A stretch of 64,000 bases of DNA from a phage: sequence record PZ583742.1; one strand, written 5' to 3'. The notes beneath the pieces are model-generated. The model worked only from the letters and a program-made list of their open reading frames with translations. It was not told the origin of the DNA and did no database searches. Of the stretch, positions 11,081 to 61,247 are shown piece after piece. The position numbers were made by a program, and so were the translations under genes. Position 1 is the stretch's first letter; the number at the start of each line of letters is the position of its first letter.

Positions 11081-11109
11081 TTTACAACGGCAATGGATTG
11101 CCGTATGAT
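11081..11109 (+). promoter_or_regulatory. early sigma70 promoter with stem-loop in spacer
   Basis: TTTACA 11081-11086, 17-nt spacer holding CGGCAAT/ATTGCCG hairpin, TATGAT 11104-11109. Confidence 0.55.
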
Positions 11110-13898: not shown

Positions 13899-15322
13899 AA
13901 ACTATTTTATCCCAGCTACTCTTTAACAAGGAATATTTTGTTAAAGTCTGGCCATATCTGAATAATACATATTTTGAAAAGGGTCCTGCAAAGACCCTTT
14001 TTAATACGATTAACGAACACGTAAAAGAATATCAAGCGGTACCAACTAAGACTGCACTTGATATCGCGCTCGACAGTTCTGACCTTTCTGAAGTCGAATA
14101 TGAAGGCACAAAGAAACTCTTAGGAGTCCTGGCCGATACTCCAGAAGACCAGGAATGGTTGGTTAAAGAAACCGAGAAGTATGTACAGAAGTCTGCGATG
14201 TTCAATGCCACATCCAGGATTATCGAAATCCAGAGTAATGCCGAACTTCCGAAAGATAAACGTGATAAACGAATCCCGGATATTGGTGCTATCACCGACA
14301 TCATGCGCGATGCATTGTCTATCTGTTTTGACTCTGCTCTGGGCCATGACTGGTTAAACGATTACGAAGCTCGATTCCAGACTTATCTGAACAAATCGAA
14401 GAAGGTTCCGTTCCGTATTAACATCCTGAATAAAATCACAAAGGGTGGGGTTGAGTACGGTACAGAGAACGTTTTACTGGCTGGGACAAACGTCGGCAAA
14501 TCCCTTGGACTTTGTTCGTTAGCGGCTGACTATCTTCAGACTGGTCATAACGTGCTTTATATAAGCATGGAAATGGCTGAAGAAGTATGTGCCAAACGTA
14601 TTGATGCCAACTTGCTGGATGTATCTCTGGATGATATTGATGAAGGTCATGTGTCATGGGCAGAATACAAAAGTAAGATGGAAAAATGGCGCGCAGCCGG
14701 GACTCTTGGGACTCTGAAGATAAAACAATATCCAACTGGTGGTGCTCATGCGGATACCTTCCGTGCATTATTGAATGAATACAAACTGAAACAAGGGTTT
14801 GTGCCGGATGTGATTATTGTTGACTACCTGGCAATCTGTGCAAGCTCAAGATTGAAAACGTTTACCGAAAACAGTTACGGCCTGATTAAAATGGTTGCAG
14901 AAGAACTTCGTGGCCTGGCGGTCGAGAAAAATGTGGTCCTGTGGACTGCAGCACAGACAACCAGGGGCGCGAACGTTGCAGCTGAGATTGATATGGCTGA
15001 CATTGCAGAATCCTTTGGTATTGCTCACACGGCCGATTTTATGTTGGGTGTTGTTGAGACTGAAGAATTCGCTCAAATGGGTCTGCAGTTAATCAAACAG
15101 CTTAAGTCTCGTTATGGTGATAAGAACTACTATAATAAATTCAAGATGGGTGTTAAGAAAGGTAATCAGCGCTGGTATGAGGTTGATGATGATTCGGCTC
15201 CTAAACAAGGCCCTACGGTTAAAGAAGCCACTGGTGAGATGAATCGCCAGGCTGAAATGAATAGACAAACCAGGGTCAACAGGAGCGACCTGGACGACCT
15301 TGCTGCTCAAATGAAATTCTAA
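13892..15322 (+). CDS. 41: replicative DNA helicase gp41 (DnaB-like)
   Basis: Walker A GTNVGKS; MVETILSQLLF aligns with the T4 gp41 N-terminus; GTG start 6 nt after GAGGTGG. Confidence 0.95.
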   Translation: MVETILSQLLFNKEYFVKVWPYLNNTYFEKGPAKTLFNTINEHVKEYQAVPTKTALDIALDSSDLSEVEYEGTKKLLGVLADTPEDQEWLVKETEKYVQKSAMFNATSRIIEIQSNAELPKDKRDKRIPDIGAITDIMRDALSICFDSALGHDWLNDYEARFQTYLNKSKKVPFRINILNKITKGGVEYGTENVLLAGTNVGKSLGLCSLAADYLQTGHNVLYISMEMAEEVCAKRIDANLLDVSLDDIDEGHVSWAEYKSKMEKWRAAGTLGTLKIKQYPTGGAHADTFRALLNEYKLKQGFVPDVIIVDYLAICASSRLKTFTENSYGLIKMVAEELRGLAVEKNVVLWTAAQTTRGANVAAEIDMADIAESFGIAHTADFMLGVVETEEFAQMGLQLIKQLKSRYGDKNYYNKFKMGVKKGNQRWYEVDDDSAPKQGPTVKEATGEMNRQAEMNRQTRVNRSDLDDLAAQMKF

Positions 15323-15340
15323 AGACCTTCGGGTCTTTTT
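15322..15340 (+). terminator. intrinsic terminator (UUCG tetraloop)
   Basis: AAGACC-TTCG-GGTCTT then TTTT, overlapping gp41 stop. Confidence 0.6.
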
Positions 15341-15350
15341 CATTTAGAGG

Positions 15351-15379
15351 TTTACAACACCATAAAAGGGGTGTACCAT
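15351..15379 (+). promoter_or_regulatory. early sigma70 promoter
   Basis: TTTACA, 17-nt spacer, TACCAT. Confidence 0.5.
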
Positions 15380-15380
15380 T

Positions 15381-15413
15381 ATCCCATCAACTACTGATGA
15401 GGATAATAAAATG
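15381..15413 (+). repeat. conserved 5' leader cassette, copy 1 of 3
   Basis: ATCCCATCAACTACTGATGAGGATAATAAAATG; near-identical copies at 24432-24463 and 28551-28583. Confidence 0.8.
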
Positions 15414-15659
15414 TTATTAGTTAATGTGCATTACCAGTTCAAATCTGAAGAAGCTCTCCAAAAGTATGCTGATATTTGTGAGCATAATAAAAGAACAGCT
15501 GCCATTGTTGGTCTGAAGCCTTTTAAAATTTTGGATTGCACCTTGAACAGAGCAAGGCGCTGGTGTAGTGTTGCCTGTCATGCTTCAGTTGAAGGGAATG
15601 ATTATTTTTTCATTACTTTCAATGCACAAGATTTTCATTTAATTAATGAATTAAAATAG
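15411..15659 (+). CDS. hypothetical protein (82 aa)
   Basis: ORF behind early promoter and conserved leader. Confidence 0.4.
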   Translation: MLLVNVHYQFKSEEALQKYADICEHNKRTAAIVGLKPFKILDCTLNRARRWCSVACHASVEGNDYFFITFNAQDFHLINELK

Positions 15660-15688
15660 TGTACAAGCCCCTTGACTTAGGACATAAT
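15660..15688 (+). promoter_or_regulatory. early sigma70 promoter
   Basis: TGTACA, 17-nt spacer, CATAAT; followed by CCACACTGAGTTAC leader. Confidence 0.55.
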
Positions 15689-16049: not shown

Positions 16050-16071
16050 AGGGGCTTACAGCCCCTTTTTC
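16050..16071 (+). terminator. intrinsic terminator
   Basis: GGGGC-TTACA-GCCCC then TTTTT. Confidence 0.55.
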
Positions 16072-16109
16072 TTATGTTATAATGACTCTATCAACTACTG
16101 GAGAATAAA

Positions 16110-16877: not shown

Positions 16878-16906
16878 TGTACAACAAAGGGATAATGCAG
16901 TATATT
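16878..16906 (+). promoter_or_regulatory. early promoter with stem-loop
   Basis: TGTACA, 17-nt spacer, TATATT; hairpin GGGATAAT/ATTATCCC spans the -10. Confidence 0.5.
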
Positions 16907-21961: not shown

Positions 21962-21966
21962 TTATA

Positions 21967-21989
21967 GGGAACCTTCGGGTTCCCTTTTT
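21967..21989 (+). terminator. intrinsic terminator (UUCG tetraloop)
   Basis: GGGAACC-TTCG-GGTTCCC then TTTTT. Confidence 0.6.
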
Positions 21990-22012
21990 GCTTTTAATAG
22001 AAGCGGTATAAT
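21989..22012 (+). promoter_or_regulatory. MotA-box middle promoter candidate
   Basis: TGCTTTT 21989-21995 and TATAAT 22007-22012. Confidence 0.4.
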
Positions 22013-23799: not shown

Positions 23800-23855
23800 T
23801 TTACTTACTCCCCTCCTAATGACATAATGGCCTTTCTTACAACAGAGAGGCCATT

Positions 23856-24416
23856 ATGAACATCATCAAATCTGATACCGAACCCAACCAGTTAAAATTT
23901 AGTGAAATGGAGATAGCTTCATTATTTGAGTGTCGCACATCAAAGGTTGATAAGACCTTGCATTCAAACGTTAACTCAATCATCAAGTCAAGGTTATCTG
24001 TACCTGATACAGTCTTGTATCGTGGGGTTACCCAGCAAGAGATTGATTTGTTAGATGAAGCAAAAGAATCAATGCAACCTTTTGAATTTGGAAGGATAAC
24101 CTCCTTTACAGAAGACTATGGTATTGCCAGGGATTTTGCTGCAATGGAATATGTGTCAAGGACTATCATCAGATTGAATCATACAAAAGCTTTTTGTTAC
24201 CATGATGCGATGCGCAAAATCGCGCTTGACGTTCCACTGGAATTCTTCAATACTGCTTCTGGTTCCGAACAGGCAGCAACGTTAAGACGTGAAGAATACA
24301 TGGACATGATTGATTCTGAGCTTGAATGGTTTGTTCCAGTTGACCAGAAATTCGTGGTGGTTGATGCTGGATTTGTTGGTGATTATTATGTTCTTGACTG
24401 TGTACAAGAGCAATAA
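23856..24416 (+). CDS. ADP-ribosyltransferase (R-S-EXE type; ModB-like by position)
   Basis: LYRG Arg, SFT motif and ELE in SELEWFVPV; 186 aa. Confidence 0.55.
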   Translation: MNIIKSDTEPNQLKFSEMEIASLFECRTSKVDKTLHSNVNSIIKSRLSVPDTVLYRGVTQQEIDLLDEAKESMQPFEFGRITSFTEDYGIARDFAAMEYVSRTIIRLNHTKAFCYHDAMRKIALDVPLEFFNTASGSEQAATLRREEYMDMIDSELEWFVPVDQKFVVVDAGFVGDYYVLDCVQEQ

Positions 24417-24431
24417 GACACGTTAAGATGT

Positions 24432-24463
24432 TCCTATCAACTACTGATGAGGATAATAAAATG
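24432..24463 (+). repeat. conserved 5' leader cassette, copy 2 of 3
   Basis: See 15381-15413. Confidence 0.8.
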
Positions 24464-25075
24464 CTGTACACAAGTCACCAATTAGCAGAGTACATCAATG
24501 CAGTTAAATGTGAATATTTTCGTGAAAATACCCAGATTGAAATTGATGAAATTTACTCTGAGTTGGAACAGAGTACACTCTGGCAGTGTATGGAAAATAA
24601 GCCAGACACTATCCAGGAAACTTTGAACAAAATTATTCGTAAGAATTTGACTTCTGCTGTGCCTGGTAAGTTATATCGCGGGATTTCTAAGAAAACTTTG
24701 GCATATCTTGAAACCGTAGGATGTGTTGGTGCTACGATTGAGTTTGACCGTGTAATGAGTTTCTCCAAAGATTTCAGTGTTGCGCGTAACTTTGCTTCCT
24801 TTAGCTTCTATGGAACCAAAAATATTTTCTGTATTAATGATGCACCATTCGCATTTGATTATCAGGAAGCGATTTTTAAAATGATTTGTGCGGCACCTCC
24901 TGAAGAGTTCAACGGACTATATCCTGAAATAACTCGTTCTTCAAACTTGCAATTAGTAAATGATGAAGATGAGATGATGTTCCCTGCGGGAACTACGCTA
25001 CGCGTGGACTCTATTGAGAGCATTTATAGATGGGAAGACTATAAATTATGGAATCTTTCTGTTCTTTCTTACTGA
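24461..25075 (+). CDS. ADP-ribosyltransferase (R-S-EXE type; ModA-like by position)
   Basis: LYRG, SFS motif and EDE in DEDEMMFPAG; start at 24461 after the leader (ORF-track start 24428 lies inside the leader). Confidence 0.55.
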   Translation: MLYTSHQLAEYINAVKCEYFRENTQIEIDEIYSELEQSTLWQCMENKPDTIQETLNKIIRKNLTSAVPGKLYRGISKKTLAYLETVGCVGATIEFDRVMSFSKDFSVARNFASFSFYGTKNIFCINDAPFAFDYQEAIFKMICAAPPEEFNGLYPEITRSSNLQLVNDEDEMMFPAGTTLRVDSIESIYRWEDYKLWNLSVLSY

Positions 25076-25157: not shown

Positions 25158-25185
25158 TGTACATAAAAGATGAATAGTGTATAAT
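25158..25185 (+). promoter_or_regulatory. early sigma70 promoter
   Basis: TGTACA, 16-nt spacer, TATAAT; TCATACTGAGTT leader. Confidence 0.55.
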
Positions 25186-25231
25186 GATTTCATACTGAGT
25201 TTTCAATCGTCCGTAAGATGAGAAAAATATC

Positions 25232-27604: not shown

Positions 27605-27836
27605 AGTACATAAAGAAGATTTAGATACTCTTATCTATGGTATTCAGGACGCGGTTGAATTTTTCGAAGATAATCCGACTATCGTCCAACAGGGTAATTA
27701 CGTTTTACTGGAACTGAGTCTTATTCAGAAACGTATGGCCGCGATTGAATATTTTAACAATGAAGAGCCAGGAATTTTTATCTCCGACTATGTTGCTGGT
27801 GAAATTCAGAAATTAAAAGAGATGTGCGATGATTGA
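27597..27836 (+). CDS. hypothetical acidic protein (79 aa)
   Basis: Overlaps dda stop; between dda and dexA. Confidence 0.4.
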   Translation: MYKVHKEDLDTLIYGIQDAVEFFEDNPTIVQQGNYVLLELSLIQKRMAAIEYFNNEEPGIFISDYVAGEIQKLKEMCDD

Positions 27837-28548
27837 TGCTATTATTGACTTTGAAACTCTGGGAAACGGCTCGAAGGGAGCCGTTATTGACTTGGCCCTG
27901 ATTACATTCGAATCTGACCCTGCTATTGTGGAATCATTCGAAACCCTGGTTAATCGCGGCAAACGTATTAAGTTCAGTCTCGAATACCAAAAAGGAAAAC
28001 GTCTGTTTGACACAACAACCATGGGTTGGTGGAAAAAACAATCAGCAGAAGCACGTGTTAACCTGGCCCCTTCTGCACATGATGTTGATACTCTGACCGG
28101 TATCCAACAGGCGATTGACTATCTGAATGGCAATGGAATTAACAAATACGAAAGCCTTATGTGGTGCCGTGGAATGTCTTTTGACTTCCCGTTGTTTGTT
28201 GACCTTATCCGTGACCTGCAGCGCAATGAGGGTATCCCTGAGCGTGAATTGAATACCTATGACCTGGAGCCGGTTGTATTCTGGAACCAGCGAGATATCA
28301 GGACGGCAATCGAAGCCTTGTCACTCGTCCGTAAGATGTGTGAAACCCCATTACCGAAAGGGACTTTAGATGGATTTGTGGCGCACGATTCAGTGCATGA
28401 CTGCGCGAAAGATATTCTTATGCTGAAGTATGCCCAGCGCTATGCTCTTGGTTTAGATGAAGTTCCTTCCGAAGAAGATGCAGACCCGTTATCTTTACCA
28501 AAAAAAAACGATAAAAGTAGTGTACAAGGCCAATGGAAAGAGACATAA
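27829..28548 (+). CDS. dexA: exonuclease A DexA (DnaQ-like 3'-5' exonuclease)
   Basis: Exo I motif IDFETLG near N-terminus; 239 aa; position after dda. Confidence 0.7.
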   Translation: MIDAIIDFETLGNGSKGAVIDLALITFESDPAIVESFETLVNRGKRIKFSLEYQKGKRLFDTTTMGWWKKQSAEARVNLAPSAHDVDTLTGIQQAIDYLNGNGINKYESLMWCRGMSFDFPLFVDLIRDLQRNEGIPERELNTYDLEPVVFWNQRDIRTAIEALSLVRKMCETPLPKGTLDGFVAHDSVHDCAKDILMLKYAQRYALGLDEVPSEEDADPLSLPKKNDKSSVQGQWKET

Positions 28549-28549
28549 T
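28521..28549 (+). promoter_or_regulatory. early sigma70 promoter (inside the dexA 3' end)
   Basis: TGTACA, 17-nt spacer, CATAAT. Confidence 0.55.
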
Positions 28550-28550
28550 T

Positions 28551-28583
28551 ATCTCATCAACTACTGATGAGGATAACAAAATG
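28551..28583 (+). repeat. conserved 5' leader cassette, copy 3 of 3
   Basis: See 15381-15413; one substitution. Confidence 0.8.
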
Positions 28584-28838
28584 ATTACTTCTTTTGAAAT
28601 TGGCCAACAATATGAAATGTCCGCTCTTCAAGCTGCTGAAGCAGGTCTGACCGAAGCGTTTGAATGTGCATTTACAAATATTCGTGGTAAAATCTTTACT
28701 GTCAATAAAATTGCGGTATATGATAAAGAAACAGACATGAACAAAGGCATCTACTTGAACGTGTCAAACGCAAAAGGTCGTCGTGAAATTATGGTTGTAC
28801 AACCTAATCAACTGGCGATGTTCAATAAGGTTGCATAA
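28581..28838 (+). CDS. hypothetical protein (85 aa)
   Basis: Start after the leader (ORF-track start 28533 rejected). Confidence 0.4.
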   Translation: MITSFEIGQQYEMSALQAAEAGLTEAFECAFTNIRGKIFTVNKIAVYDKETDMNKGIYLNVSNAKGRREIMVVQPNQLAMFNKVA

Positions 28839-29596: not shown

Positions 29597-29640
29597 AGTG
29601 TACAAACTCTTGGGGTCAGAGTATAATGACCCCACTGGAG
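29597..29640 (+). repeat. 44-bp promoter/stem-loop cassette, copy 1
   Basis: Matches 40846-40889 with one mismatch; includes TGTACA, GGGGTCA/TGACCCC hairpin and TATAAT. Confidence 0.85.
29599..29627 (+). promoter_or_regulatory. early promoter with stem-loop across the -10
   Basis: TGTACA 29599-29604, TATAAT 29622-29627, stem 29612-29618/29627-29633. Confidence 0.55.
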
Positions 29641-31051: not shown

Positions 31052-31312
31052 ATGAAATACATTAATCGTTCTATTGCAGCACTGGTACTGGCGGTTTCAT
31101 TGGCTAGTTGTACTGATGCAGATAATGCCATTCGTGTATTAGATGCAAACGGCTATGAACAAATCCAAATCACCGGTTATAACTGGTTGGGTTGCTCTGA
31201 AGATGATTTCCAACACACAGGCTTTACGGCCGTAGGGCCAACTGGTAAGAAAGTTAAAGGAACTGTTTGTTCTGGATTGCTGTTTAAGAATTCAACCATT
31301 CGATTTGAATAA
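31052..31312 (+). CDS. predicted lipoprotein (86 aa)
   Basis: Signal peptide with lipobox LASC; GAGGA SD. Confidence 0.5.
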   Translation: MKYINRSIAALVLAVSLASCTDADNAIRVLDANGYEQIQITGYNWLGCSEDDFQHTGFTAVGPTGKKVKGTVCSGLLFKNSTIRFE

Positions 31313-31329
31313 GGCCTTCGGGCCTTTTT
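31312..31329 (+). terminator. intrinsic terminator (UUCG tetraloop)
   Basis: AGGCC-TTCG-GGCCT then TTTT. Confidence 0.55.
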
Positions 31330-31353
31330 GCTTTAAAATATGTGACTTATAAT
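31329..31353 (+). promoter_or_regulatory. MotA-box middle promoter candidate
   Basis: TGCTTTA 31329-31335, TATAAT 31348-31353. Confidence 0.45.
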
Positions 31354-38420: not shown

Positions 38421-39014
38421 ATGATTCAGAAGAGTAAAACATGGGAGCATCTGAAAAAGATGCCCTCCTTTCTTTATACAAAGGAAGACTTAACCCCTGA
38501 ATCCCTGCAAAAGATTGTAGACACGGCTAGGTATTCATTGCGTAAAGACCCAGGTCAGGACCGTGAGCAAGTCATGCAAAGATGTATGGTGGCCACAATG
38601 GCTGAACAAGCTATTGCTAAATGGACCTCCGGTTTTTTATGTGGCGGTGATGAAGATTACGATAATCCTTATTCCTTTGCATTTGATGTAGTTTCGAAGG
38701 AAGGGGTAAGAATCGAAGTCAAGACTCATCAGTCTGGTTCCAAATGGATATCCGTGCATACTGGTCACCAGGGTGATTATCCGCATGGTTACGGGGTCAA
38801 TCTTGGTCCTTTTATGCAACACAAGCTTGCTGACCTTATGATTATGTTTAATGTAAAAGAGACTCTCAAAGGTTATAGATTTAAACCAAAATTCCTTGCT
38901 GGACCTGGTGCTTTCGTTCCTGAGTCTGGTCTTGTGCAGAAGTCACAAGGGGATGGTTGGTACCTCCGTTCTTGTTCAGAAGAAAAATTTCCCTATCACC
39001 GGTTTACAAGCTGA
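38421..39014 (+). CDS. hypothetical protein (197 aa), possible PD-(D/E)xK nuclease
   Basis: FAFDVV...RIEVKT resembles a D...E-x-K core; lies where T4 denB sits, but I cannot confirm similarity. Confidence 0.35.
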   Translation: MIQKSKTWEHLKKMPSFLYTKEDLTPESLQKIVDTARYSLRKDPGQDREQVMQRCMVATMAEQAIAKWTSGFLCGGDEDYDNPYSFAFDVVSKEGVRIEVKTHQSGSKWISVHTGHQGDYPHGYGVNLGPFMQHKLADLMIMFNVKETLKGYRFKPKFLAGPGAFVPESGLVQKSQGDGWYLRSCSEEKFPYHRFTS

Positions 39015-39026
39015 ACCAACTGTGTA

Positions 39027-39060
39027 ATAATGTCCTCATACCAACAAATGAGGACATTAT
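39027..39060 (+). promoter_or_regulatory. SD-sequestering hairpin (translational control element)
   Basis: 13-bp perfect stem ATAATGTCCTCAT/ATGAGGACATTAT; 3' arm contains GAGGA SD and ends 2 nt before ATG 39062. Confidence 0.5.
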
Positions 39061-39348: not shown

Positions 39349-39378
39349 TGTACATCAGTATGGAGTCTATTGTATAAT
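39349..39378 (+). promoter_or_regulatory. early sigma70 promoter
   Basis: TGTACA, 18-nt spacer, TATAAT; CCATACTGAGTTAC leader. Confidence 0.55.
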
Positions 39379-39940: not shown

Positions 39941-39968
39941 TGTACATCTCCGGTGGTTGTAGTATAAT
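39941..39968 (+). promoter_or_regulatory. early sigma70 promoter
   Basis: TGTACA, 16-nt spacer, TATAAT. Confidence 0.5.
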
Positions 39969-40847: not shown

Positions 40848-40889
40848 TGTACAAACTCATGGGGTCAGAGTATAATGACCCCACTGGAG
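40846..40889 (+). repeat. 44-bp promoter/stem-loop cassette, copy 2
   Basis: See 29597-29640. Confidence 0.85.
40848..40876 (+). promoter_or_regulatory. early promoter with stem-loop across the -10
   Basis: TGTACA, TATAAT 40871-40876, GGGGTCA/TGACCCC stem. Confidence 0.55.
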
Positions 40890-43149: not shown

Positions 43150-43244
43150 GTTTTGGAGTTGAGTTTGCATTGCTTTGTATTTTCGCGGCAATCGCAGGTG
43201 TGATTGTTGGTATGTTTATTGGTAATAAGATAGATAAAGACTAG
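43146..43244 (+). CDS. small hydrophobic peptide (32 aa)
   Basis: ATGA overlap with gp52 stop. Confidence 0.3.
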   Translation: MSFGVEFALLCIFAAIAGVIVGMFIGNKIDKD

Positions 43245-43265
43245 GACCCTTCGGGGTCCTTTTTT
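43243..43265 (+). terminator. intrinsic terminator (UUCG tetraloop)
   Basis: AGGACCC-TTCG-GGGTCCT then TTTTT. Confidence 0.6.
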
Positions 43266-43281: not shown

Positions 43282-43310
43282 TGTACAATCCCCTTGACCC
43301 GCTGCATAAT
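43282..43310 (+). promoter_or_regulatory. early sigma70 promoter
   Basis: TGTACA 43282-43287, 17-nt spacer, CATAAT 43305-43310. Confidence 0.55.
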
Positions 43311-43359
43311 GATTCCATACTGAGTTACACAATGAATCACAAAAACTTTGGAGAATAAA

Positions 43360-43575
43360 ATGTTTACTGCACAACAGAATGAAGGTCAAGAATACATTAA
43401 CGCTAAATTCAAATCTAATAAAGAAGCTTGTTATTACTACTTTGACATGTTCAAACTGGCAAACTCTAAAGAAGAACGTAAACAAGCGATTGATGTGATT
43501 GTTTCTACTTCCCATATGAAACGTACTGTGGTACAATCATATGCATCAAATTATATGAAATCTATTAAGGGATAA
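43360..43575 (+). CDS. hypothetical protein (71 aa)
   Basis: GGAGAATAAA then ATG. Confidence 0.4.
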   Translation: MFTAQQNEGQEYINAKFKSNKEACYYYFDMFKLANSKEERKQAIDVIVSTSHMKRTVVQSYASNYMKSIKG

Positions 43576-45381: not shown

Positions 45382-45546
45382 ATGAGTCATAACTTAGAGA
45401 ACACCATCACCGGTCAACGTACACGCGAGCTGGCTTGCTTTGAGGAATTCCTTGGAGCTGATTTTAAGTTCCAGGAACCAGTTGAACAGATGTATCAGGA
45501 ATATGTTGTACACATGGAAAATCATGTGTACAACCCAGAGGAATAA
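45382..45546 (+). CDS. hypothetical small protein (54 aa)
   Basis: AAGGG SD then ATG; 3' end overlaps the asiA promoter. Confidence 0.3.
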   Translation: MSHNLENTITGQRTRELACFEEFLGADFKFQEPVEQMYQEYVVHMENHVYNPEE

Positions 45547-45555
45547 TAGTATAAT
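45527..45555 (+). promoter_or_regulatory. early sigma70 promoter for asiA
   Basis: TGTACA, 17-nt spacer, TATAAT. Confidence 0.55.
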
Positions 45556-45604: not shown

Positions 45605-45880
45605 ATGACTAAATTTGAAATCGTTTCTGAAATTGTTACTATAACTTCAATTTTGATTAAAACCGACCGGGAAGATATTACGATGAAGCGTGATGTGTTT
45701 ATCGCGTTTTTGAATGAGTTGGGATTGAGAAATGAGAATGGGAATGAGTTAAACAATGTATCGTTTAACAAGTTGTTTAAAAGTTTATCTGAAGATGAAA
45801 TTGAACAAATCATTGAACAATTTAACGAAGGATTCGAAGATATACACCGTTATCTTATGATGTATACCTCCGGATTCTAA
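45605..45880 (+). CDS. asiA: anti-sigma70 factor AsiA
   Basis: SEIVTITSILIKTDREDI...FIAFLNELG...FNEGFEDIHRYLMMYT matches T4 AsiA. Confidence 0.85.
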   Translation: MTKFEIVSEIVTITSILIKTDREDITMKRDVFIAFLNELGLRNENGNELNNVSFNKLFKSLSEDEIEQIIEQFNEGFEDIHRYLMMYTSGF

Positions 45881-59759: not shown

Positions 59760-59765
59760 TATAAG

Positions 59766-59788
59766 GGGACCTTCGGGTCCCTTTTTTA
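59766..59788 (+). terminator. intrinsic terminator (UUCG tetraloop)
   Basis: GGGACC-TTCG-GGTCCC then TTTTTT. Confidence 0.6.
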
Positions 59789-59802: not shown

Positions 59803-59831
59803 TGTACAAGTCCTTTGAGCTAAGGCATAAT
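59803..59831 (+). promoter_or_regulatory. early sigma70 promoter
   Basis: TGTACA, 17-nt spacer, CATAAT. Confidence 0.55.
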
Positions 59832-60235: not shown

Positions 60236-60265
60236 TTTACAACGGGTCTATGATTATGTTATTAT
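60236..60265 (+). promoter_or_regulatory. early promoter with stem-loop
   Basis: TTTACA; GGTCTAT/ATAGACC hairpin; TATTAT. Confidence 0.45.
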
Positions 60266-60522: not shown

Positions 60523-60551
60523 TATACAAACCAATGGGAACATATTATCAT
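60523..60551 (+). promoter_or_regulatory. early promoter with stem-loop
   Basis: TATACA; GGGAACAT/ATGTTCCC hairpin; TATCAT. Confidence 0.45.
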
Positions 60552-61218: not shown

Positions 61219-61247
61219 TGTACAACCAAATGGGGCTATGACATAAT
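61219..61247 (+). promoter_or_regulatory. early sigma70 promoter
   Basis: TGTACA, 17-nt spacer, CATAAT; CCATACTGAGTTAAC leader. Confidence 0.55.

Follow-up and report, generated by a model that had tools for sequence, protein, structure and literature searches.

Early promoter cassettes resembling PeSL elements and a leader shared by three unrelated genes in a T4-like coliphage

Promoter-early stem-loop (PeSL) cassettes have been described in RB49/phi1, T4/PST and KVP40/nt-1 (Arbiol et al. 2010, PMC2839356; Comeau et al. 2014, PMC4122927). Mini-circles and the promoter and terminator activity of these cassettes have been demonstrated experimentally for RB49/phi1 only (PMC2839356), and the cassettes reported here are read from sequence. 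A second point of reference is the immediate-early promoter of T4, for which a review lists 'additional regions of consensus' beyond the UP, -35, TGn and -10 elements (Hinton 2010, PMC2988021).

The DNA analyzed here, referred to as the window, is a phage sequence of 64,000 nucleotides (record PZ583742.1). A 4-kb piece around the shared leader shows 93-94% identity to Gaprivervirus phages, among them UPEC01, SP18 and vB_EcoM_RZ. Projection of the SP18 annotation onto the window yields a T4-type early and replication region, reversed with respect to the conventional map and with the gene order gp55 ... gp43, imm, uvsX, gp41, dmd, sp, gp61, modB, modA, srd, dda, dexA, motB, gp39. GC skew indicates that the coding strand is the + strand up to ~44 kb and again from ~56 kb. 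Sequence identity and synteny identify the window as the early-gene region of a T4-like coliphage belonging to the genus Gaprivervirus. A search of the available literature for promoter analyses of VR7 or other Gapriverviruses found none.

The early promoter units of the window share their basic layout with PeSL cassettes, namely an AT-rich tract, a sigma-70-like early promoter and a Shine-Dalgarno (SD) sequence with start codon at the 3' end. Their -35 consensus is (G)TGTACA, compared with TTGACA in RB49 and TTTACW in T4/PST.

Predicted early promoters

The initial annotation counted at least 17 promoter-like sites and proposed a position weight matrix scan as a check. The scan, carried out with a two-box matrix without leader columns, supports this count and detects 20 sites scoring at least 12.8 bits, all on the + strand and none on the - strand. 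As the matrix was trained on the same sites that it scores, independent support is provided by the strand asymmetry and by the strict pattern TGTACA-N16-18-YATAAT, which has 11 matches on the + strand and 0 on the - strand with 0.11 expected. The consensus of the 20 sites is aaAaAgtaG-TgTACA-N16-18-(T/C)ATAAT-GatCCcAT. All of them are located on the early-gene strand and possess a -35/-10 spacing of 16-18 nt. The 22 nt preceding the promoters have a mean AT content of 0.75 vs 0.60 in the window (standard deviation of single 22-mers 0.105, n = 20). TG at -15/-14, corresponding to the extended -10 element TGn, is found in only 5 of the 20 sites, whereas most of the T4 sites compared contain it.

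Similar to T4 immediate-early promoters (PMC2988021), the sites combine an AT-rich upstream tract with a GT(T/G)TAC -35 region, N17, a -10 box similar to TATAAT and further conserved positions. In the -35 hexamer, position 2 is G here and T in T4. Four sites match T4 promoter-like sites in both position and sequence, located at imm.1, sp, motB and downstream of dexA, and share the leader motif ACTACTGA(G)G with T4. The T4 site at ~8.2 kb, downstream of dexA, is one that we take, judging by its name, to be the studied early promoter 'P8.1'. The strand, the AT-rich tract, the 16-18 nt spacing, the downstream SD and ATG and the positional orthologues in T4 all agree with the initial reading of these sites as early promoters. 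They carry every feature expected of T4-type immediate-early promoters, and promoter activity is predicted from their sequence and from orthology with the T4 promoter-like sites.

All predicted promoters are on the + strand. The first is the imm promoter at 11081-11109, with an ATCAAC leader and a 7-bp stem-loop within the spacer. It is followed by the promoter of leader 1 at 15351-15379 (-35 TTTACA, N17, -10 TACCAT), a promoter at 15660-15688 identified by both strict pattern and matrix (ACACTGAGTTAC leader), one at 16055-16083 (ATCAACTACTGGAGAATAAAATG leader) with the stem-loop GGGGC-ttaca-GCCCC around the -35 box and a subsequent T run, and the sp promoter at 16878-16906 (ATCAACTACTGAGGAG leader), where the stem-loop AGGGAT/ATCCCT spans the -10 box. 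The modB promoter at 23800-23828 was identified by the matrix and has an unclassified leader. The promoter of leader 2 at 24401-24429 consists of a TGTACA within the end of modB, N17 and TAAGAT, and has the lowest core score of the 20. Its poor -10 box and the TACCAT of promoter 15351 weigh against promoter activity at these two sites. The srd promoter at 25158-25185 (ATACTGAGTT leader) represents the right boundary of a modA swap. The promoter of leader 3 at 28521-28549 (TGTACA, N17, CATAAT) corresponds in position to the T4 promoter-like site downstream of dexA, and the motB early promoter occupies 29599-29634, with the stem TGGGGTC/GACCCCA (29611-29617 and 29628-29634) enclosing the -10 box.

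A weaker promoter-like site detected by the matrix is found at 39003-39031. Beyond it lie promoters at 39349-39378 (ATACTGAGTTAC leader; 10-bp stem GTATGGAGTC/GATTCCATAC spanning the -10 box), at 39941-39968 (ATCAACTGCTGGAG leader; strict pattern and matrix) and at 40848-40876, the last being a near-duplicate of promoter 29599, with 1 mismatch over the region between the -35 box and +13. The segment 43243-43310 contains a UUCG terminator (43243-43260) and an early promoter (43282-43310; again with the ATACTGAGTTAC leader), and the segment 59763-59831 likewise contains a UUCG terminator (59763-59784) and an early promoter (59803-59831; ATCAACTACTGAT leader). Between these two segments, a promoter-like site at 45527-45555 precedes a 91-aa ORF, and its -35 box forms part of the 3' arm of an inverted repeat of 13 bp. 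The remaining promoters are located at 60236-60265 (ATCAACTACATGAGG leader; stem spanning the -10 box), 60523-60551 (degenerate leader; stem GGGAAC/GTTCCC spanning the -10 box) and 61219-61247 (ATACTGAGTTAAC leader; 8-bp stem spanning the -10 box).

Several additional features of these regions were observed. The segments 29599-29640 and 40848-40889, 11 kb apart, are near-identical from the -35 box to +13 and read TGTACAAACTC(T/A)TGGGGTCAGAGTATAATGACCCCACTGGAG. In both copies a GGAG comes next without an ATG at the proper distance, the real SD and ATG following 25-35 nt further on, and this GGAG looks like a vestigial initiation region. The perfect 13-bp inverted repeat at 45505-45537, TGTTGTACACATG gaaaat CATGTGTACAACC, is located near the point where the coding strand switches, and the 91-aa ORF (45605-45880) is probably asiA, judged by position. 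The leader of promoter 43282 holds an 8-codon mini-ORF at 43333-43362, ATGAATCACAAAAACTTTGGAGAATAA, which spans the GGAG Shine-Dalgarno sequence and ends in a stop codon overlapping the start of the main ORF (TAAAATG). In the 15660 leader, which belongs to this family, the matching codon is ATA, so the mini-ORF is not a shared trait of the family. At 21966-22012 and 31311-31353, UUCG-loop terminators directly abut MotA-box-like middle promoters (TTTGCTTT...N12...TATAAT), an arrangement resembling the 'PmSL' composites of phage nt-1. MotA-box/-10 patterns number 12 on the + strand and 1 on the - strand of the window.

Leader families and the leader shared by three genes

Two leader families had been recognized in the initial annotation. 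Both are real, with ATCAAC(TACTG) comprising 9 of the 20 promoters, or 10 if a degenerate member is counted, and (C)CATACTGAGTT comprising 5. A third family, GACCCCACTGGAG, had been overlooked and has 2 members, the leaders of promoters 29599 and 40848, which are also nearly identical outside the leader. The leaders of three of the 20 promoters are unclassified. All 9 members of the first family have ATCAAC 6 nt past the -10 box, and every one of these leaders leads to the SD and ATG of a listed ORF 20-32 nt past the predicted transcription start, the range of UTR lengths in this family. The fixed distance of ATCAAC to the -10 box and its variable distance to the ATG indicate that this 5' module belongs to the promoter and start site.

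The 5' module ATCAACTACTGA is present in six further promoters of the window and also in T4 and JS10. The T4 leaders are ATCAACTACTGAT at imm.1 and ATAAACTACTGAGGAG at sp, while those of JS10 are ATCAACTGAGGAG at modA and ATCAACTAATCG at srd. Judged by this distribution, the ATCAAC module is old. A 3' module, GGA(T)AA(T/C)AAAATG, is anchored to the ATG and is similar to GGAGAATAAAATG in four other leaders; the 3' module sequences of the leaders are GGAUAAUAAA and GGAGAAUAAA. The srd leaders of the window (25186-25231) and JS10 (locus L017, 1640-1680) have the 3' part AATCGTCCGTAAGATGAGAAAA(A)TATCATG in common and differ in their 5' modules, ATACTGAGTTTTC (ATACTGAG, ATACTGAGTT leader) in the window and ATCAACT in JS10, indicating that modules have been exchanged.

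One 28-nt block, ATCAACTACTGATGAGGATAAYAAAATG, occurs exactly three times in the window, at 15386-15413, 24436-24463 and 28556-28583, all on the + strand and with a single T/C difference among the copies. Searching the whole window with up to 3 mismatches revealed no further copies, and none are expected in shuffled sequence. Copy 1 represents the predicted 25-nt 5'UTR and ATG of an 82-aa ORF (15411-15659, +; PHROG 2980, GoF-like). Copy 2 represents the predicted 5'UTR and ATG of modA (24461-25075, +; PHROG 832, ModA ADP-ribosylase). Copy 3, with T changed to C at 28577, represents the predicted 5'UTR and ATG of an 85-aa ORF (28581-28838, +; PHROG 17795, function not known). In the three-way alignment, the copies agree from the predicted +1, the seventh base past the -10 hexamer, as far as the ATG; outside this stretch they have nothing in common except the -35 and -10 boxes on the upstream side. 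The initial annotation had described three virtually identical leaders up to the ATG. The exact 28-nt block confirms this, with the correction that the starts then given (15381, 24432 and 28551) include 4-5 non-identical bases. The accompanying statement that three unrelated genes share one translation initiation region is likewise in agreement with the shared block and the unrelated PHROGs. BLASTP comparison of the 82-aa ORF with the goF of the window gave E = 0.021 for a single comparison, and an internal duplication is not convincing. At the 3' end of dexA (28494-28550), an A run is 2 bases longer in the window than in SP18 and shifts the frame, so that the dexA ORF of the window (27829-28548) stops at a TAA within the -10 box CATAAT and SP18 uses an earlier TAA. 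The longer run is a genuine polymorphism or else a sequencing error in a homopolymer.

Taken together with the 6 bases before it, the leader occurs in 37 phage records, which are essentially all Gaprivervirus-like, at 3-6 places per genome, and the second-family leader ATACTGAGTTAC in 38 records at 8-11 places per genome. In VR20, VR25 and VR26, the same 18-mer leader precedes modA and the 85-aa ORF as well as two further small ORFs, one of 58-60 aa and one of 77 aa, and is not found before any ORF after gene 41. The VR-clade loci were retrieved with the exact 18-mer and therefore cannot be used to argue for leader invariance; four coincidental matches in unrelated contigs (L003, L010, L012 and L015) were excluded.

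The predicted leader RNA, AUCAACUACUGAUGAGGAUAAYAAA-AUG, is 25 nt long with a G-poor 5' end and a GAGGA SD 7 nt before the AUG. Its minimum free energy is -0.6 kcal/mol (z ~0 vs shuffles), and an Rfam search of the whole window returned no family above threshold. An unstructured leader with a GAGGA SD suggests that the three genes should be efficiently translated right after infection. Published start preferences for NAD capping around +1A do not fit the context tCC-A-UCA.

The 3' module also resembles a cleavage site. Strong RegB/S1 sites have the consensus GG*AGRAYARAA with the cleaved core GGAG/U (Uzan and Miller 2010, PMC3014915). The related pattern GGAKRAYARAA has 8 matches in the window compared with 0.89 expected, all on the + strand and 7 of 8 directly before an ATG. 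The three identical leaders are among these matches, each with U as the fourth base. As in known RegB/S1 sites (PMC3014915), GGA(G/U) and an A-rich RAYARAA are located in unstructured intergenic initiation regions of early genes. Four leaders of the window match GGAGAATAAAA perfectly, and the shared leader reads GGAUAAYAAAA in its three copies, its fourth base U differing from the GGAG of the strong consensus. GGAU is cleaved by RegB in some cases ('GGAG/U'; PMC3014915), not necessarily efficiently. SP18, which is ~94% identical to the window, has an annotated regB located beyond the part of its genome covered by the window, and a regA within the syntenic region. The module GGAUAAYAAAAUG thus fits the RegB cleavage consensus, and this fit suggests that expression is probably shut off early by a RegB cut inside the SD. 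VR-clade copies of the leader have GGAA or GGAC in place of GGAU, and RegB targeting therefore cannot be what holds the whole leader constant.

Stem-loops and gene-exchange boundaries

The proposal that promoters usually lie just after a UUCG terminator is not borne out. A UUCG-loop hairpin with a T run is present within 80 nt upstream of only 3 of the 20 promoters (15351, 43282 and 59803), one of these being the terminator of gene 41 (15321-15338, +), 13 nt before the -35 box of promoter 15351. Stem-loops mostly overlap the promoter instead. A stem of at least 5 Watson-Crick bp spans the -10 box in 8 of 20 promoters, or in 10 of 20 if G.U pairs are allowed, compared with 12% of cross-pairings. 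In these inverted repeats, the 5' arm is located in the spacer and the 3' arm corresponds to the 6-10 nt right after the -10 box, and spacers pair better with their own post-(-10) segment than with those of other promoters (permutation p ~0.001). Elsewhere, promoter 11081 has its stem in the spacer, the stem of 16055 surrounds the -35 box, the 13-bp stem of 45527 includes that box, and the three UUCG hairpins lie upstream of their promoters. Variable placement of the stem-loop upstream, enclosing the -35 box, in the spacer or across the -10 box is shared with PeSL cassettes.

To follow one such stem across genera, orthologues of the motB promoter from T4-, Dhakavirus- and Gaprivervirus-type genomes (locus L018, which is T4, and loci L019-L032) were compared by a pattern scan of the loci. 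The arms read GGGACC/GGTCC(C/T), GAGAGCC/GGCTCTC, and GGGGCC/GGTCCC or GGGGTC/GACCCC. Pairing is 100% in 11 distinct orthologues (72 of 72 cells are standard pairs), with slid controls giving 29-50%, and 4 of 7 pairs show two-sided, compensatory changes with G.U intermediates present. Tolerance of G.U argues for selection at the RNA level, on transcripts reading through from upstream; the predicted transcript of the promoter itself lacks the 5' arm. The covariation consequently points to a function of the stem enclosing the motB -10 box in read-through RNA.

At the three loci examined, cassettes lie at the boundaries of insertions, deletions or replacements between related phages. The unit consisting of promoter 15351, leader 1 and the 82-aa ORF is present in SP18 and missing from VR20, which has a single cassette directly after the gene 41 terminator. 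The breakpoints of this indel between the window and VR20 fall in the -35 regions of the two cassettes flanking the 82-aa ORF (15351 and 15660). Promoter and leader of the unit are collinear with the VR25/VR20 cassette preceding the 58-60-aa ORF. An origin of promoter 15351 as a spacer-deletion fusion ('AAAAGGGGTGTAC' abutting 'CATTATCCC') is excluded by this collinearity.

At the second locus, window and VR20 are 95-100% identical through modB and the leader to ~24471 (ATG+10 of modA), 45-83% identical through modA and 98% identical again from 25102, just before the srd cassette. The modA allele is put at 55-75% identity to VR20 modA, against 97-98% for its flanks. The modA allele of the window shows 76-79% identity to Dhakavirus modA from 24428 on. 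These sharp modA boundaries could also have arisen if recombination took place at any point of the conserved flanks and ModA was under diversifying selection. In contrast to the window, T4 modA has neither promoter nor leader of its own because it overlaps modB. At the third locus, T4 carries an almost identical promoter and leader behind dexA (ATAGCTACTGAGGATAATAAAATG); the gene that comes next in T4 is motB.2, and it has no relationship to the 85-aa ORF. PeSL cassettes similarly occur in many copies per genome on the early strand and at exchange boundaries between close relatives, where a gene that has cassettes on both sides in one phage is replaced by just one cassette in another (PMC2839356, PMC4122927) and with crossovers near the stem-loop and -35 region (PMC2839356; PMC4122927).

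Origin of the shared leader and relation to known cassettes

We consider it quite probable that the units are PeSL-type composite cassettes and that the identical leaders are copies of the 3' end of one such cassette, spread by recombination and kept by selection. Each cassette would consist of an AT-rich tract, a strong sigma-70 immediate-early promoter, a stem-loop upstream of, within or across the promoter, a short 5'UTR with SD and the ATG. Host RNA polymerase would initiate ~7 nt past the -10 box, and recombination between cassettes would insert, delete or replace the genes behind them. The three leader copies would be identical because the whole leader travels within the cassette. Selection on the start site and on a strong, open and probably RegB-sensitive initiation region would preserve the leader sequence.

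Two other readings of the identity are possible and seem about equally doubtful to us, and both are partial alternatives that are compatible with each other. The leader could be an RNA operator, with RegB acting in the SD, RegA at the AU-rich start or another factor binding, so that the three genes would be co-regulated and identity would be maintained by selection for binding. This reading, which overlaps with the cassette explanation, is consistent with the fit of the 3' module to GG*AG/U-RAYARAA, with the location of the only difference between copies (T/C, 28577) at the Y position of the RegB consensus, with the lack of structure that RegB/S1 and RegA sites have in common, with the presence of regA and regB in SP18 and with the identical GGATAATAAAATG retained by T4 at the locus downstream of dexA despite divergence at the genus level. 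It is weakened by the fourth base being U rather than the G of strong sites and by the VR-clade copies, where GGAAAAC or GGACCAA after the SD shows the putative operator to vary and the 5' module to remain constant. Moreover, the 5' module keeps a fixed distance to the -10 box rather than to the ATG, and an operator leaves the exchange boundaries at the leaders unexplained. This distance, constant at 6 nt in 9 of 9 leaders, is what would be expected if the block were instead an extended DNA promoter element that tunes open complex stability, start choice, escape or the response to Alt/ModA-modified RNA polymerase. The presence of the motif at early promoters of T4, JS10 and the window phage and the extra consensus regions of T4 early promoters (PMC2988021) argue in the same direction, and identity up to the ATG would be incidental given the short UTR. 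Such an element covers only the first ~11 nt, however, and the other 17 nt from SD to ATG are equally identical; in addition, promoters of families 1 and 3, with different sequence after the -10 box, have equal or better core scores.

Two further readings were rejected. Coding N-terminal extensions, as annotated in the SP18 reference, are very improbable. The SP18 RefSeq entry starts modA and gp013 (record L001, 24325-24972 and 28429-28734) 33 and 48 nt upstream of the SD-preceded ATGs, and in-frame upstream ATGs at 24428 and 28533 in the window are equivalent to the starts used there. Copy 1 has no upstream ATG and contains an in-frame TAA at 15363-15365, and nucleotide-identical 'codons' would be unexpected in three unrelated proteins. 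The upstream ATGs are located in or before the -10 box and hence would be absent from a transcript of the adjacent promoter, GAGGA is found 7 nt before the downstream ATG, and the JS10 annotation begins its 204-aa modA at the ATG equivalent to that of leader 2. The downstream ATGs at 24461 (modA) and 28581 (gp013) are therefore more likely starts than those of the SP18 RefSeq entry. We assign even less chance to a structured RNA, either an SD-presenting hairpin CAUCA/UGAUG or a ribozyme with a CUGAUGA hammerhead core. The leader does contain 4-5 bp of complementarity, (C)ATCA...TGAT(G), and the string CTGATGAG. Against this, its folding energy is no better than that of shuffles, the Rfam search was negative for the window, the complementarity is missing in other family members and neither a helix II nor a GAAA partner for a hammerhead is present.

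The cassette explanation leaves room for one further idea, which we regard as improbable, namely that AUCAACUACUGA, fixed at the transcription start, is a dedicated cis signal in the mRNA 5' end or the promoter that is read by a phage or host factor. This 5' module is common to early genes of T4, Dhakavirus and Gaprivervirus. If the idea were true, the module would be more than a by-product of cassette ancestry and would mark immediate-early transcripts for stability, processing or translation, or for a response to ADP-ribosylated RNA polymerase.

The analysis provides a map of predicted promoters and leaders for the early region of a Gaprivervirus and probably puts right the annotated start codons of two genes of the SP18 reference, modA and gp013. 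The motB stem adds comparative evidence, as covariation across several genera, for stem-loop action in read-through RNA. With cassettes of probable PeSL type located exactly at gene-exchange boundaries, Gaprivervirus would represent a fourth T4-like lineage of this kind. No new kind of element or mechanism is implied, as the cassettes are of an already described kind and nothing departs from known T4-family biology. The TGTACA variant of the -35 box, the weak TGn element and the discrete leader families are genus-specific. To our knowledge, accounts of PeSL cassettes do not stress discrete or identical 5'UTR families. In this respect the window differs from the reported cassettes, its 5'UTRs falling into discrete genus-specific families, one of which is nucleotide-identical at three genes.
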